A DNA stretch of 64,000 nt from an uncultured Bacillota bacterium (GCA_942493215.1 OW818670.1:523298-587297); one strand, 5' to 3'. Positions 4,986-46,431 are shown, counted from the first letter of the stretch. Made by a program: numbers and translations. The notes: a model not told the origin generated them from the letters alone.

Positions 4986-5120
4986 CTTATCACCATCTAA
5001 AATGACGCACATATTTAGAGGATTTTAAGGCTGCTATCTTCCGATCCTGACCTGTTTCAAACATAAACATTGCGTCTTTAATAATATAATATAATTAATA
5101 AGTTTATGCAACAAAATTTA

Positions 5121-5838: not shown

Positions 5839-8264
5839 TAAATATCACAAACTTCCTTTTCATCAGCTTTAATTATAGCAACCGTGCTAACTTTTTGATT
5901 GTCTTTTAAATTGATTAATCTTACTCCTTGAGCTACTCGTCCTGTTGATGATACTTGACTCAAAGGTAATCTTATAATAATACCACTATCGGTAATAATC
6001 ATTAAATCTTCATCGCCATGAACAGATTTAAATGAAACAATATTCCCGTTTTTTTCAGTGATATTTAAAGCTTTAACTCCTTTGCTACCACGATGTGTAA
6101 TTCGATATTCATTAATATCCGTTTGTTTGCCATAACCATTCTCAGTTACAACTAGAACTTGTTGATCTGTTTCAGCAATTTCCATACCAACTGCGTAGCC
6201 TTCACCGACATCAATACCACGAACGCCAGAAGCACTACGACCCATAACTCTAATTTCTTTTTCATCAAACCTAATCATACGTCCGTTAGAAGAAGCAATT
6301 AGTATTTCATTTTCTCCCTCTGTCTTTTTAACGGAAATCAATTGATCGTTTTCATTTAATGAAATAGCAATCTTACCATTAGTTCTAATGTTACTAAACT
6401 CTGAAAGACTTGTTCTTTTAACCGTTCCATTTTGAGTACAGAAAACAATATATTTAGAACTATCATCAGCCAAAACCTTTAACATTACTTTAATTATCTC
6501 ATCTTTTTCAATCGGTAATAAGTTAACTATTGGTAAACCTTTAGATTGACGGCTAAATTCTGGAACCTCATAACCTTTAACACGATAAACTTTACCTTTA
6601 TTAGTAAAGAACATTAAATAATCATGTGTTGTCATCGAGATTAAACTTTCTACAAAATCTTCTTCATTCGTAGCCATACCCTTAATACCTACGCCACCGC
6701 GATTTTGAGTCTTATATGTTTCACATTGTATTCTCTTTATATAACCTTTATTAGTTAAAGTTATTACAATATCCTCTACAGGTATTAGTGATTCATCTTC
6801 AATGTAATCAGCAGATGTCATATCAATGTGAGTTCTTCTTTCATCAGCATATTTTCCTTTTATTTCTAACAACTCAGTACGAATTATTTCCAATACTCGT
6901 TGCTCGCTAGCTAGAATAGCTTTGTATTCTTCAATAGCTTTTAATAAATCTGCTAATTCAGACTCAATCTTGCCTCTTTCTAAACCCGTTAAACGACGCA
7001 ATTTCATTTCGAGAATAGCTTCTGTTTGGATATCAGTTAAACCAAAATTAGAAGTTAGTTTTGCCTTTGCATCGTCGTCACTTGAAGCCTCTTTAATAAT
7101 TTTAATTACTGCATCAATATTATCAAGAGCAATTTTTAATCCTTCAAGAATATGAACTCTCTTCTCGGCTTTAGTTAGATCATATCTTGTTCTTTTGATG
7201 ATTATTTCCTTTTGATAATCAATATATTTAGAAATAATTTGTTTAAGCCCAAGTGTCTTTGGAACACCATTATCAATCATTAATAAAATAATACCATATG
7301 TTGTCTGAAAAGATGTATGTTTATATAAGTTGTTAAGAACAACCTGTGGATTAGCATCCTTCTTCAATGTTATGGTAATTTTAATACCATTTTTCAAGTC
7401 ACTATGATAATCAGAAATTCCATCTATTATTTTATTGTGGACTAGTTCTGCAACTTTATTTTTTAATTCTAAAGTATTGACACCATAAGGAACCTCATCA
7501 ATAATAATATAACTTTTACCATCATTTTCCTCAATAGTAGCCTTACTACGAATAGTAATGGTACCACGTCCTGTTTCATAAGCTTTTTTTATCTCACTGT
7601 TACCAAGAATAATACCACCAGTTGGAAAATCTGGTCCCTTAATATAATTCATTAATCCTATAGTATCAATTTCAGGGTTATCAATATAGGCAACACATCC
7701 ATCAATTACTTCACCAAGATTATGAGGTGGAATATTAGTAGCCATACCAACAGCTATTCCCATTGTTCCATTAACTAGAATGTTAGGAAATCTTGATGGT
7801 AAAATAGTTGGTTCCTGTAATGATTCATCAAAGTTTGATCTAAACTCAACTATTTCTGGTCGAATATCTCTTAATAATTCCAAGGATATTTTTGAGAGCC
7901 TTGATTCGGTATAACGCATTGCCGCTGCTCCATAGCCATCGATATTTCCGAAGTTACCATGACCATCGACTAACATATAACGATAGCTAAAATCTTGAGC
8001 CATTCTTACCATTGCCTCATAAATACTAGAATCGCCGTGTGGATGATATTTTCCCATTACATCACCAACAATACGTGCTGATTTTTTATGTGGCTTATCT
8101 GGGAAATAGCTTGATTCATACATTGAATATAAGATTCGACGATGAACAGGCTTTAATCCATCTCTTAAATCTGGTAAAGCACGGGATACAATAACGCTCA
8201 TTGAATAATCCAAGAAAGAATCTTGAATTTCATTAACAATATTATTTTGTACTAATTTATCCAT
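5838..8264 (-). CDS. gyrA: DNA gyrase subunit A
   Basis: 808 aa. Active-site region AAMRYTE, QRDR-like [20 protein letters not shown]-terminal beta-pinwheel repeats. Confidence 0.95.
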
Positions 8265-42433: not shown

Positions 42434-42520
42434 TGATAATTATTGCATATCATATCAACTTGTGGTAACATTTAATATATAACAAAATATAACAAATAGC
42501 TAACTAAAGAGGTGATAGCA

Positions 42521-43222
42521 TTGGTTAATTTTATTATCTGTGATGACAACAAAGAAATGGTAAAAAAAGTTGAAGATATTATTGATAAGATAATGTTTAA
42601 AAATAAAATAGGTTATCGAAAACATATTTTTTATGATTATGATAGTAAATTTGTTAAAGAAATTGATAATCGTCTTCCATCTAAAATATATATTTTAGAT
42701 ATTGAAACACCTAGCGGATCGGGTATTGATATAGCAAGAAAAATTCGAAATAATGATATGAATAGCATAATTATTTTTATGACTATTCACGAGGAACTTG
42801 GTTATGTTATTTTGAGAAATGAGTTTATGTTCTTATCCTTCATTAATAAATATGATGATTTTGAAACTAAGATGTCATCATCATTAAAAAAAGCTATTGA
42901 AACATTAGGTAAGAAAATAGCCTTAAAAATAGAAGATGGTGGTATTATCTATAAAATACCATTAAAGGATATATTATATATAACTCGTGATAGTGTTGAA
43001 AGAAAAGCAATAATAAAAACGGATTACACAGAATTTAAAATTAATCGCACTATAACTGAATTACAAGAATTATTAGATGATCGTTTTAAATTATCACATC
43101 GTGCTTGTATAGTAAATGTTGAAAGGATAAGAATAGCCGACTTTAAAAAAAGTCTTATTATTTTCGATAATAATGAACGCATTAACTTAATAACAAAGGC
43201 CTTTAAGAAAGAAGTGAAGTAG
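42521..43222 (+). CDS. LytTR-family response regulator (AgrA-like)
   Basis: ORF from 42512. TTG 42521 chosen, 8 nt after AAAGAGG, giving (M)VNFIICDDN. Receiver domain plus C-terminal LytTR DNA-binding domain. Confidence 0.8.
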   Translation: MVNFIICDDNKEMVKKVEDIIDKIMFKNKIGYRKHIFYDYDSKFVKEIDNRLPSKIYILDIETPSGSGIDIARKIRNNDMNSIIIFMTIHEELGYVILRNEFMFLSFINKYDDFETKMSSSLKKAIETLGKKIALKIEDGGIIYKIPLKDILYITRDSVERKAIIKTDYTEFKINRTITELQELLDDRFKLSHRACIVNVERIRIADFKKSLIIFDNNERINLITKAFKKEVK

Positions 43223-43224
43223 TA

Positions 43225-44532
43225 GTGGATTTAGGATTAATATTATTAGCAATAAATTCAGCCATATTTTCTAATTTTGCTTTGTTATACATTGTATCTA
43301 AACTTGTAGATAAAAATTTATTTGCTAATATCAAACATTTTATCCTTTGTTATCTTTTTTTGATAATTTTTTCGTCGGGAATGTATCTTGTTACTAATAA
43401 TTTATTACGAATATTATTATATTATTTAATACTGATACCAGTTTGTAAAATAATGTTTTCAGAAAAATTATATAAAATAATTTGTTCTACATTTTTAGCC
43501 TATGTATTAATGGCAGCTTCTGAAATGTTAACAGCAATAATATTAATCTTTTTTCAAAATGGAGATCAATATATTTTCCATTCTTATACATTAAACGTAT
43601 TTGTAAACATTATAATATTTACCTTTGGAATATTAATGGCCGAAAACAAAAAGTTAATAGATGTATTAAAGAGGATAATTAGTTTATTAGATAACGTTAT
43701 GATGACAAAAGTATTAGTTGCGTCTGTTATTGGGATTTTTTTAGTATTTTTTATTCTTTTTTGCAGTTATTTTCGTTTATCAACAATCTACCTATTGGTA
43801 ACCGACTTTTTATTTTTATGCTGCTATATTTACATAATATATATATACTTTAAAGAAATAAATTTAAACGTTGTTATAAAAAAAGAATATGATGATCTTT
43901 TAGTAAACGTTAATGAATATGAGAGGATATATAATATTCAAAAAATGATTGCTCATGAACATAAAAATCAATTATTAACCATTAAAAGCTTAGTTAATAA
44001 AAAAGACAAAAAACTTATGTCTTATGTTGATGGCATTATTTCTAGTGATTTATTAGATGACAATGAATGGTTTAATAAGTTAAACTTTATTCCTAATGGT
44101 GGCATACGTGGGATTTTATATTATAAAATACTTGAAATGAAAGAAAAGAAAATCAATGTTGATTTTATAATAAGTAAAAACATAAATGCAAAGATTATGG
44201 CGGATATATCTCTAAACACAAATATTAATTTGTGTAAAATATTAGGTGTTATTTTAGATAATGCTATTGAGGCCTTAAAGAACGAAAAAGAAAAAAATAT
44301 ATCCATTGAATTTTATTGCAATGAAAATAAAGTTGTTATAGCTATTTCAAATAATTATTCAGGAAATGTTGAGTTTTCTAAAATGGGTATAAAACAGTTT
44401 TCAACTAAAGGTGAGAATCACGGCTATGGTTTGCGGCTTGTTAAATATTTAGTTAATCAAGATGATAATCTTGAAAATCAAAAAGAAATAAATGGCAACA
44501 TTTTTACCCAACTAATAAAAATAAGAGCATAG
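43225..44532 (+). CDS. AgrC/ComD-type membrane histidine kinase (HPK10)
   Basis: 435 aa. Six or seven N-terminal TMs, H-box around MIAHEHKNQL, GHKL ATPase N-box ILDNAIEA and GYGL. GTG start coupled to the regulator gene's stop. Confidence 0.8.
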   Translation: MDLGLILLAINSAIFSNFALLYIVSKLVDKNLFANIKHFILCYLFLIIFSSGMYLVTNNLLRILLYYLILIPVCKIMFSEKLYKIICSTFLAYVLMAASEMLTAIILIFFQNGDQYIFHSYTLNVFVNIIIFTFGILMAENKKLIDVLKRIISLLDNVMMTKVLVASVIGIFLVFFILFCSYFRLSTIYLLVTDFLFLCCYIYIIYIYFKEINLNVVIKKEYDDLLVNVNEYERIYNIQKMIAHEHKNQLLTIKSLVNKKDKKLMSYVDGIISSDLLDDNEWFNKLNFIPNGGIRGILYYKILEMKEKKINVDFIISKNINAKIMADISLNTNINLCKILGVILDNAIEALKNEKEKNISIEFYCNENKVVIAISNNYSGNVEFSKMGIKQFSTKGENHGYGLRLVKYLVNQDDNLENQKEINGNIFTQLIKIRA

Positions 44533-44548
44533 CTCTTATTTTTTAATA
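44521..44548. terminator. Bidirectional terminator between the kinase gene and the AgrD-like gene
   Basis: ATAAGAGC-ata-GCTCTTAT with T-runs on both strands. Confidence 0.65.
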
Positions 44549-44551
44549 AAA

Positions 44552-44674
44552 CTAATTAATTAGGTTTTCAGGTATTTCTGGTTCATCAAGCCATATAATA
44601 ACGCAGGCATTACTTCCTAATTTAGCAAATAATTCGCCAACACTTGCTAAAGAAGCTGCTAAAAATCCAAACAT
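44552..44674 (-). CDS. AgrD-like autoinducing-peptide precursor (40 aa)
   Basis: ATG at 44674 preceded by AAAGGAGGTGAAATT. The peptide is MFGFLAASLASVGELFAKLGSNACVIIWLDEPEIPENLIN. It has an amphipathic N-terminus, a single Cys five residues before an acidic DEPEIPE tail, and sits immediately downstream of agrB. Confidence 0.6.
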   Translation of the reverse strand: MFGFLAASLASVGELFAKLGSNACVIIWLDEPEIPENLIN

Positions 44675-44699
44675 AATTTCACCTCCTTTAATTCTATTT

Positions 44700-45308
44700 T
44701 TAAAAATAAAATTTAATACAATTACGTTGGTAATTGTAAGGCTGATCAAAAACTTTATATGATAAAGGTGAGATTATAAAACATTGTAATAATAATGCCA
44801 AGATGAGATTACTACTTACATAAGAATCTTTAATTAGAAGTGACAAAACAACATATAAAATAGAAATTAAAACAGATACATATTTCAAAAATATTCGTCT
44901 TTTTTTACTAATAATCGGTCTTTTAATTGTATCAGCAGGTGCATAAATGAACATTAGAATAAGTGATAAAATCCCTAATAAACTTTTTGTCATTAAATTC
45001 ATATAAATAGCTTTTCCTAAAAAAGGTAATCCAATAAATAAAATCAATGAAATAGCAAGACAAATCCAACTTTTTCCAGCATGAACACCAAAAGAGAACA
45101 ATCTTACAAAATTGTAGAATAGTAAAAAAACTACCAATTCATTTATTATATTTAATAAAAAGGCAACCATTAAAATAACAATACTTTTAGTAATTAGAAT
45201 ATAGATTGATTCTAGGCCATATTTTATTTCTGGAATCTTATTGTTATCATATTTTGGATAATATTTTTTTATAAAACTTAGTGTTTTTTTTACAACAAAT
45301 TCTCTCAA
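44700..45308 (-). CDS. AgrB-family membrane cysteine peptidase (AIP processing/export)
   Basis: 202 aa, polytopic. Conserved FSFGVHAGKSWICLAIS (catalytic His/Cys pair, GxHA...C). Confidence 0.75.
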   Translation of the reverse strand: MREFVVKKTLSFIKKYYPKYDNNKIPEIKYGLESIYILITKSIVILMVAFLLNIINELVVFLLFYNFVRLFSFGVHAGKSWICLAISLILFIGLPFLGKAIYMNLMTKSLLGILSLILMFIYAPADTIKRPIISKKRRIFLKYVSVLISILYVVLSLLIKDSYVSSNLILALLLQCFIISPLSYKVFDQPYNYQRNCIKFYF

Positions 45309-45613
45309 AGCAATAACCCCTTAATTTAATTAGATTTTAGCATTTACCATACTCTTGGTTTTAAAATATGTCTTAAATTGTCGAATTTATGCTTGAATAT
45401 TGAAAAGTTACTTAAAAATTAAGCGAAAAACCATTTCAAGCCTAAAATCAACTATTTCAAACGTTAAGCTATAAAACAATTGCTACACCATGCTATGATT
45501 AACAGCGGTTGCAGTAATACATATATTGTCGTTTTTTGTCTTTTACAATTTCTTGAAACGGACAGTATAGGAGTGTATATTTAATATTGTAAGAGGTAAT
45601 AGGAGGGAGATTA

Positions 45614-45829
45614 ATGATGAGAGGTAAGGTAAAGTGGTTTAACAACGAAAAGGGATTCGGCTTTATCGAATATAAGGAGAATGAAGATATTTTTGTCCAT
45701 TATTCGGCTATCTTAACAGAAGGCTATAAAACATTGGTCGAAGGGCAATATGTTGAATTTGATTTAGTTCAAACAGATAAAGGATTACAAGCAAAAAATG
45801 TCATTGAAATTAAAACTGCCTTAGTTTAG
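45614..45829 (+). CDS. csp: Cold-shock protein (CspA family)
   Basis: [20 protein letters not shown]-1 motif. Confidence 0.9.
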
Positions 45830-45850
45830 CAGTTTTTTTATTTTTTTTAA
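45813..45850 (+). terminator. Terminator after csp
   Basis: AAACTGC-cttagttta-GCAGTTT followed by a T15 run. Confidence 0.7.
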
Positions 45851-45903
45851 CCATTCTATCACAAATGTTATGGTATAATATAATAAGAAAGGATGGATGA
45901 TAA

Positions 45904-46431
45904 ATGAATTTTAATATTCGAGGCGACAAAGTAAAAGTTACAGAAGCAATTAAAAATTATGCTGAAGAAAAGATTAGTCGTATCAACAAATATTTTCATG
46001 ATCATGAAACTATGACTGCTAATGTTTTAATTAGAGTAAAAGGGATTGATCAAACGGTTGAGGTCACAATTAATAATGATAAAATGTTGTTACGGGCTGA
46101 AGAGTCTCATCGTGATTTATATGCGGCTATTGATTTAGTGGTAGATAAACTTGAACGTCAAATTCGTAAAAACAAGACGCGAATGACTAAAAAAAGTGTT
46201 AAAGATAATTATTATGAGTTTAATACTAGTTCTATTGATGCATTAAAAGAAGAAAATAAAATTGTTAAACGTAAAAAAGTTGAAATGAAACCTATGAGTG
46301 AAGATGAGGCCATTCTTCAAATGAATTTAACAGATCATGAGTTTTTTGTTTATAAGAATATAGAAACAGATAAAATATGTGTTTTATATCGTCGTAAAGA
46401 CAGCAATTACGGAGTTATTGAAACTAATTAG
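45904..46431 (+). CDS. hpf: Ribosome hibernation promoting factor (long HPF)
   Basis: 175 aa, YfiA N-domain plus C-terminal dimerisation domain. Conserved hpf-secA order. Confidence 0.9.
   Translation: MNFNIRGDKVKVTEAIKNYAEEKISRINKYFHDHETMTANVLIRVKGIDQTVEVTINNDKMLLRAEESHRDLYAAIDLVVDKLERQIRKNKTRMTKKSVKDNYYEFNTSSIDALKEENKIVKRKKVEMKPMSEDEAILQMNLTDHEFFVYKNIETDKICVLYRRKDSNYGVIETN

Follow-up and report, generated by a model that had tools for sequence, protein, structure and literature searches.

In Staphylococcus aureus, the response regulator AgrA binds as a dimer to direct repeats of 9 bp, which are spaced 12-13 bp apart and lie upstream of the -35 elements of the promoters P2 and P3 (PMC5600425, PMC4227749). 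RNAIII is regarded as a staphylococcal feature that is not described for clostridial systems (PMC8748961), the genes of which have been presented as a cluster, agrBDCA, with the gene of a LanM-like effector (CA_C0082) behind it (PMC10301443). The autoinducing peptide of Clostridium acetobutylicum, [CVLVTL], was confirmed by mass spectrometry to have a six-membered ring and no N-terminal tail (PMC8251862; PMC12312760). Six-membered rings are described as the rarer type (PMC10301443), and the tail-less clostridial peptide rearranges from a thiolactone to an all-amide ring (PMC8251862). Here we describe an agr-type locus at positions 42521-45308 of a 64,000-nucleotide stretch of DNA from an uncultured Bacillota bacterium (GCA_942493215.1 OW818670.1:523298-587297; the whole stretch is called the window below), to which an earlier note, made from the sequence of the window, had drawn attention.

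The region holds a complete agr-type peptide quorum-sensing locus of four genes, agrA, agrC, agrD and agrB. We put at about 0.75 the probability that these genes form a working autoinducing-peptide circuit of a design specific to their clade. Beyond this, it is tentatively proposed that in this clade of uncultured small-genome gut Bacilli the RNA chaperone encoded by csp is a conserved direct output of AgrA, at the position held by P3 and RNAIII in the staphylococcal system, and that the signals are diversified six-residue rings, probably without a tail.

Results

A complete agr locus with convergent gene pairs

The coordinates of the earlier note were found to hold for all four genes (Table 1). 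It had described a LytTR regulator followed by an AgrC-like kinase on the plus strand and, on the minus strand, AgrB with its catalytic His and Cys and a 40-residue open reading frame (ORF) preceded by a good Shine-Dalgarno sequence, and each of these is present. The agrB product matches the Pfam AgrB model (PF04647) with 112.8 bits (E=1.6e-32, gathering score 23), and its His76 and Cys83 (H-x6-C) are invariant in 18 homologues. Judging from motif spacing and not from a direct alignment, we take this pair to be the equivalent of the catalytic residues His77 and Cys84 of S. aureus AgrB. The agrA product matches Pfam LytTR (45.1 bits), its REC domain (Response_reg, 29.5 bits) falling slightly under the gathering score of 30.2; among solved structures it comes closest to ComE (4cbv, E=4e-7) and the LytTR domain of AgrA (3bs1, E=3e-4). 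The agrC product carries an HPK10-type kinase module (HATPase_c_5, 54.8 bits) behind a multi-pass membrane half with about 6-7 hydrophobic segments in residues 1-205. It matches the kinase module of S. aureus AgrC (6e52, E=3.6e-12) in an alignment that places the first His of AHEHKNQL, as phospho-acceptor, on the His of FRHDYVN. No sequence relatives of AgrB or AgrD were found among solved structures. The exact AgrB sequence is present in an NCBI-derived protein set, as is the 233-residue form of AgrA. The 236-residue form, which begins at the GTG at 42512 as in the mechanical ORF list, is absent from that set; the TTG start at 42521 has AGAGGTGA upstream and fits the lengths of the homologues.

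The 40-residue product of agrD contains exactly one Cys. Of the two models with which it was compared, the broader NCBIfam AgrD model TIGR04223 is passed with 26.2 bits (cut-off 19, E=6.6e-6), and PF05931, which the earlier note had named for this search and which is the staphylococcal AgrD model, gives 13.8 bits against a gathering score of 22.7. An AgrD-family search is thus positive when the model is suitably chosen. Because TIGR04223 is passed and homologues of the same architecture follow agrB in 85 related loci, the reading frame is, by sequence criteria, far beyond chance. The peptide had been called likely unannotated in the earlier note. This is not so, since the exact 40-residue sequence is already on record in the NCBI-derived set, where the 65-residue form is absent, and the gene calls of related contigs include an ORF of 39-40 residues after agrB in every locus examined. 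The 65-residue ORF at 44552-44749 had rightly been recognized as over-extended, being a mechanical extension of the agrD frame to a TTG inside agrB; the fear that gene callers miss or mis-start agrD is not borne out by the records.

In all, 167 AgrB homologues were obtained at E<=1e-5 and 88 related loci were retrieved; an exact look-up of AgrB on contigs gave no match and a genome scan with the single AgrB sequence no relatives, whereas a scan with an AgrB alignment succeeded. The assemblies that hold the related loci are from gut and rumen and bear the labels Bacilli, Tenericutes, Mollicutes or Erysipelotrichaceae; among them are Candidatus Coprosoma, Faecisoma, Scybalousia and Clostridium sp. 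CAG:594. The NCBI taxonomy places the named relatives as incertae sedis, and their genera may belong to the GTDB orders RF39/RFN20. Several assemblies with this Bacilli-type locus carry the label Muribaculaceae or Bacteroidaceae (L011, L013, L026, L035, L047, L061 and others) and are probably mislabelled or mis-binned.

In the window agrA and agrC converge on agrD and agrB, the agrD start lying 25 nt past the agrB stop codon. The same order, with csp divergent from agrB and agrB-agrD facing agrC and agrA, was seen in all 88 related loci as far as the contigs reach. The csp gene adjoins agrB divergently in 84 of 89 sequences (the 88 related loci and the window), usually followed by hpf and secA, as it is in the window. 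On the agrA side the neighbours vary among the related loci; in the window they are rpsF-ssb-rpsR, with rpsR adjoining agrA. The earlier note had set this layout apart from the staphylococcal agrBDCA operon. This distinction stands, as agrBD and agrCA occupy opposite strands in the window and in all related loci, which excludes a single agrBDCA operon. It is no local oddity, however: the convergent layout is fixed in the whole clade, because it was found in every related locus that has the genes on the contig. No description of convergent agrBD and agrCA units was found in the accessible literature. The 'agrACDB' locus of Clostridium difficile is no precedent, because it is probably one transcript (PMC3754575).

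A bidirectional terminator shared by the two gene pairs, as proposed in the earlier note, could be recognized between agrC and agrD as a hairpin with a 12-bp stem that overlaps the agrC stop codon and is flanked by A-runs and T-runs. Its folding z-scores are -3.3 on the plus strand and -4.5 on the minus strand. A simple terminator scan missed it because the stem is AU-rich with few G-C pairs; it was detected by folding. An equivalent two-way hairpin occurs in 56 of the 57 related loci with a short agrD-agrC gap, and this one structure could terminate both convergent transcripts. Two loci, L004 and L005, have a gap of 463 nt (6772-7234), the median being about 31 nt. In another locus agrC is split into two ORFs of 243 and 165 residues (L007, 6764-8039), probably a pseudogene or an assembly error.

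Table 1. Features of the agr locus and the adjoining csp region, in window coordinates.
Feature	Position	Strand	Basis
Candidate agrA-agrC promoter, presumably constitutive (TTGCAT, 17 nt, TGg-TAACAT)	42443..42471	+	sequence reading, inferred
agrA, REC and LytTR response regulator, 233 aa, TTG start	42521..43222	+	Pfam
agrC, AgrC-like sensor histidine kinase, 435 aa	43225..44532	+	Pfam HATPase_c_5
Shared two-way intrinsic terminator hairpin, agrC/agrD	44517..44543		folding
agrD, 40-aa autoinducing-peptide precursor, MFGFLAASLASVGELFAKLGSNACVIIWLDEPEIPENLIN	44552..44674	-	TIGR04223
agrD Shine-Dalgarno sequence, AAAGGAGGTGA, 4 nt before ATG	44679..44689	-	sequence reading
agrB, membrane peptidase/cyclase, 202 aa, TTG start	44700..45308	-	Pfam AgrB
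Extended -10 (TGcTAAAAT), predicted agrBD promoter	45334..45342	-	fixed distance to pair B
Box pair B, two LytTR-type direct repeats (45367-45382 and 45388-45403), agrBD promoter	45367..45403	-	matrix
Box pair A, two LytTR-type direct repeats (45429-45444 and 45450-45465), csp-ward promoter	45429..45465	+	repeat search
Extended -10 (TGcTATGAT), predicted box-dependent csp-ward promoter	45491..45499	+	conserved spacing
Proximal csp sigma-A-type promoter (TTGAAA, 17 nt, TATATT)	45553..45581	+	conserved in most relatives
csp, cold-shock-domain protein, 71 aa; predicted second AgrA target	45614..45829	+	Pfam CSD 93.5 bits

Two back-to-back promoters are predicted in the agrB-csp spacer

The spacer between agrB and csp measures 305 bp in the window and contains a direct repeat of 21-bp spacing. 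A box matrix, refined iteratively over 82 non-identical agrB-csp spacers, gave the consensus T-W-T-G-Y-Y-T-R-A-A-W-K and four boxes, arranged as two facing pairs with a 21-bp period. Pair A has the exact 21-bp spacing in 69/82 loci, clustered 150-168 nt from the agrB start. A scan of both strands placed pair B in the opposite orientation at a distance from pair A that is fixed at 25-27 nt in most loci. Towards csp, 58 of 62 loci have a TAnnnT -10 element (often TGnTAAAAT) that begins 27-28 nt beyond the proximal box; towards agrB, 37 of 38 have the same element at the same distance. The direct repeats that the earlier note had proposed to look for upstream of agrB and cspA are thus present as two pairs of LytTR type. 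From this geometry two back-to-back LytTR-type, activator-dependent promoters are predicted, one reading towards agrBD and the other towards csp, with start sites about 178 bp apart. The agrBD start would lie near 45328 on the minus strand; the csp-ward start would lie at about 45506 and give csp a leader of about 107 nt. It was also considered that pair A might activate agrB from about 150 nt upstream. This was rejected, as pair A stands at the conserved 27-28 nt from the csp-ward -10 element and a second, opposite pair occupies the same distance from the agrB-ward one. A scan for a box pair plus -10 element revealed no LytTR boxes near the candidate agrA-agrC promoter.

When the 64-kb window was scored for box pairs followed at the proper distance by a -10 element, two sites in the spacer reached 19.3 and 19.1, the next best site being at 11.6. 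Several points weigh against reading these sites as AgrA-dependent promoters. The matrix behind the two scores, as well as the scans for the spacing between pairs A and B, included the window's own pair A boxes; with a matrix that excludes the boxes of the window the scores are 19.0 and 15.4, the 19.0 belonging to pair B. In simulated 64-kb sequences the best pair averages 17.3 +/- 1.9, so that by score neither of the two reaches genome-wide significance. In many loci pair A is stronger than pair B. Furthermore, the box half-site has T or A where the S. aureus AgrA consensus has G, and an extra conserved CA that is absent from that consensus; the orientation of the boxes is not assignable from resemblance to the AgrA consensus alone. 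Since score by itself is not significant genome-wide, the case for the promoters is carried by position, spacing and conservation.

Two further comparisons bear on this case. Boxes A and B of one locus have more in common than those taken from different loci (8.33/16 vs 7.52/16 matches; z=5.7; 0/5000 permutations), which is expected if one co-evolving regulator binds both. An independent control was provided by 80 metagenome loci found through Hpf. Here a csp-side box pair with an in-register -10 element occurred in 17/23 loci with a divergent agrB and in 1/10 with csp but without agrB (Fisher p=0.0015). Several of the agrB-less control loci keep agrA or agrC next to csp while lacking agrBD and boxes. 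Taken together, self-induction through an AgrA-dependent agrBD promoter at pair B appears likely.

Four metagenome loci (L128, L141, L144 and L158) have agrA and/or agrC directly upstream of csp on the same strand. In these agrB and agrD are absent and the boxes mostly so, and they look like remnants after loss of agrBD.

The cold-shock gene as a possible output

The csp-facing pair A leads us to favour slightly the view that csp, too, has an AgrA-dependent promoter. In seven loci with a spacer of 218 bp the box promoter takes up the only promoter space before csp. Two considerations count against csp as a direct output. In most loci csp has a conserved sigma-A promoter of its own, and because of this the AgrA input might be modulatory only, added to a basal level. 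Moreover, the adjacency of csp and agrB could be inherited gene order.

Along these lines it could be argued that the circuit regulates only itself and that the csp-facing boxes are not an AgrA-dependent csp promoter. They could then serve agrBD from a distance, in the manner of an enhancer, or bind another factor, next to a csp that is adjacent by inheritance. It fits this explanation that csp, hpf and secA serve housekeeping and have a conserved sigma-A promoter of their own, and that 6/23 agr-positive control loci are without a good csp-side site. Yet the distance from box to -10 element is equal on both sides of the spacer, and conservation is higher in the pair that faces csp. The seven short spacers, the loss of the boxes where agrB is absent and the covariation of boxes A and B within loci likewise speak against a purely self-regulating circuit, which we therefore regard as unlikely, though deserving of weight. 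The reading in which AgrA acts on csp as well as on agrBD is retained here.

In the csp leader and the spacer (45250-45950) no credible Rfam match was obtained, and no small ORF was seen in the leader. Across the 64-kb window the only RNA to reach its Rfam gathering score is the bacterial small signal recognition particle RNA (RF00169, 61.3 bits) at 4988-5086 on the minus strand; RNAIII was not found, and the divergent promoter faces csp. Our literature searches returned no report that links agr to a divergently transcribed csp or that treats agrBD, a cold-shock protein and LytTR together, and none on RF39 with agr or quorum sensing.

Two other features of the region before csp were observed. 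In most loci the -35 element of the proximal csp promoter is preceded, at about 10-15 nt, by the conserved motif TTGTCG(A/T)nTTTTG (45527-45539 on the plus strand in the window), which could be an UP element or a regulator site. In related loci short GC-rich palindromes (CCGG, CCGCGG, GTCGGCGCCGAC) stand just past the csp-side -10 element, at about +10 to +25 if the long csp transcript starts as predicted (e.g. L034, L056, L013, L029, L042, L018 and L021); the rest of these genomes is very AT-rich. No clear palindrome occupies this place in the window.

The AgrD family and the size of the ring

From the related loci 85 AgrD peptides were recovered, 82 of them distinct, and the counts below refer to these 82. 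They are 36-42 residues long. Anchored at the tail, the family follows the pattern A-x-x-x-G-S-x-A-C, five variable residues, and D-E-P-x-x-P-K-S-L-I-K. The three parts that the earlier note had regarded as AgrD hallmarks, a leader, a single Cys and an acidic, Pro-containing tail, are present in the window peptide, and the three-part architecture is conserved in the 82 homologues; the amphipathicity of the leader is only moderate (hydrophobic moment 0.29-0.38). The leader comprises residues 1-23, the predicted ring Cys24-Leu29 (CVIIWL) and the tail Asp30-Asn40 (DEPEIPENLIN). In the tail the D is kept in 80/82 peptides, the E in 82/82 and the P in 72/82. The five residues between Cys and D are hydrophobic and highly variable, with an entropy of 2.5-3.2 bits each, and lie between conserved flanks; the 82 peptides contain 77 different hexamers.

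The ring-forming Cys always stands six residues before the D. One peptide, that of L079, has Ser at this position (GSEASLVVIFDEEETP) and would yield a lactone instead of a thiolactone. In 47/82 AgrDs a second Cys occurs in the tail that is cleaved off (DEPECPKSLIK, position +4 after the invariant D), where the window has Ile (DEPEIP). From Cys through tail, the family profile aligns without a gap to the AgrDs of C. acetobutylicum and C. felsineum, the sequences of which were taken from the supplement of PMC10301443. Every five-ring AgrD tested requires a one-residue deletion in the ring segment. Because the register from Cys to tail is that of the six-ring AgrD of C. acetobutylicum, the signal of the window is probably the six-residue ring CVIIWL and not CVIIW. 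Two points bear on the strength of this assignment. It assumes, by analogy, that AgrB cuts at the same position relative to E-P-x-x-P as in the characterized systems, and the five-ring reference sequences are matched to a published source in their rings, which agree with the table in PMC12312760.

The earlier note had predicted a thiolactone ring of five residues, CVIIW, preceded by a few exocyclic residues (xxNACVIIW), in which case the cleaved tail would begin with Leu. Most characterized autoinducing peptides do have five-membered rings (PMC12312760, table), and at the variable position next to D-E every homologue has a hydrophobic residue (I, L, F, V or W), as a conserved recognition residue could be. 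That position is nevertheless as variable as the ring positions (2.48 bits). The Cys lies six and not five residues before D-E, and the D-E-P-x-x-P segment is gap-free with six-ring AgrDs and in need of a deletion with five-ring ones. In addition, the G-S-x-A segment is conserved despite differing rings, which suits a processing site better than a tail that bears specificity. A five-residue ring is for these reasons rather improbable, and the assignment in the earlier note is not upheld.

For the six-residue ring preferred here the same segment has a further implication. G-S-x-A looks like a processing site because it is conserved across species with differing rings and has small residues at -3 and -1. 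Its position directly before Cys suggests a tail-less peptide, the leader being cut at the conserved G-S-x-A/C junction; on these sequence features we consider the chances of such a product to be evenly balanced. By analogy with the clostridial peptide, a tail-less window peptide could rearrange spontaneously to an all-amide ring.

Discussion

With the genes, their motifs and their conservation at hand, it is very probable that the locus encodes a functional agr circuit that uses the 40-residue AgrD. The circuit could work as follows. agrA and agrC would probably be expressed constitutively from their own promoter, and agrB and agrD would be transcribed from the opposite side towards agrCA, the two-way terminator keeping the converging transcripts apart. 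AgrB, through His76 and Cys83, would cut AgrD after Leu29, removing the 11-residue tail, and join Cys24 to the carboxyl group of Leu29 to form the six-residue thiolactone. The 23-residue leader would then be removed, likely between Ala23 and Cys24, to leave a ring without a tail. This hexapeptide would be sensed by AgrC, which would phosphorylate AgrA, and AgrA in turn would bind both direct-repeat pairs in the spacer and switch on the two back-to-back promoters. The agrBD promoter would provide positive feedback and the csp promoter the output, as a long csp transcript, so that a cold-shock-domain protein would occupy the place of RNAIII in S. aureus.

Two points tell against this model as a whole. 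Support for it comes from sequence only, and the window AgrA is no close orthologue of staphylococcal AgrA, because its score against the NCBIfam AgrA equivalog is 40.9, far under the cut-off of 400. The AgrC equivalog likewise gives 59.6 against a cut-off of 500. As these staphylococcal cut-offs are not reached, the agr proteins of the window are to be seen as family members.

That the 40-residue ORF arose by chance, or that the locus is decayed and does not signal, is very improbable. The Pfam AgrD model remains under threshold, and relatives do show decay, as in the split agrC of L007 and the loss of agrBD from L128, L141, L144 and L158. In the window, however, the four genes are intact and preceded by good ribosome-binding sites, none of the catalytic His and Cys residues, the kinase His or the AgrD motifs is missing, and the AgrD architecture is kept in 82 distinct homologues, a conservation by which this explanation is largely refuted. 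A linear peptide-pheromone system of the Com/Blp/Pln type with a LytTR regulator, to which ComE as the best solved relative of the regulator might point, is hardly credible and is refuted by gene content, as AgrB and an AgrD-family peptide are present, no double-glycine leader peptide or peptidase-domain ABC transporter occurs in or beside the locus, and the best solved match of the kinase is AgrC.

Taken singly, the locus is ordinary and already annotated; more is gained from the comparison with its relatives. This comparison defines by sequence a family of AgrD precursors from gut metagenome-assembled genomes, at least 82 of them distinct, with exact predicted ring boundaries, and would extend six-membered-ring peptides beyond Clostridium. 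Of clade-wide interest are the fixed convergent layout, the extreme diversification of the rings and the predicted P3-like promoter aimed at csp. The predicted regulon, agrBD and csp, could explain what quorum sensing controls in these uncultured organisms. If csp is indeed a direct output, the divergent promoters of agr are a design in which an RNA-binding protein can take over from a regulatory RNA. The dozens of ring signal types, if real, imply widespread signal interference among gut strains.

Compared with the agr system of S. aureus, the locus has the same four protein families, the H-x6-C pair of AgrB and an AgrD with leader, Cys and acidic D-E-x-x-x-P tail. Both have two LytTR repeat pairs in one spacer serving two divergent promoters, which are predicted ones in the window, one of them for agrBD (PMC4227749, PMC5600425). 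The differences are that agrCA is a separate, convergent unit here and part of a single operon in S. aureus, that the predicted ring has six residues and not five, that the divergent promoter faces csp and not RNAIII, and that the box sequence is another. The staphylococcal Pfam AgrD and NCBIfam AgrA and AgrC models also remain below their cut-offs here.

With C. acetobutylicum the locus shares the AgrD register Cys-x5-(Y/D)-E-P-x-x-P and a similarly hydrophobic ring (CVLVTL vs CVIIWL), as well as agrBD and agrCA as separate transcription units (PMC10301443, PMC12312760). The tail-less state and the rearrangement to an all-amide ring found for the clostridial peptide (PMC8251862) are plausible for the window peptide. 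The units converge here, whereas the clostridial cluster is read by us as co-directional, which is not stated outright in PMC10301443. Among the genes adjacent to the window cluster there is no LanM-like CA_C0082 gene (the rest of the genome was not searched). The AgrD leader has 23 residues against about 32, and the host lineage differs.

The predicted promoters finally resemble those of the ComE, BlpR and PlnC/D systems, in which a pair of direct repeats, about 21 bp from one to the next, lies just upstream of a promoter that combines a weak -35 element with a good or extended -10 element, and it is in ComE that the window regulator has its best solved relative. These systems, however, use linear peptides exported by ABC transporters, whereas the locus described here has AgrB and AgrD.

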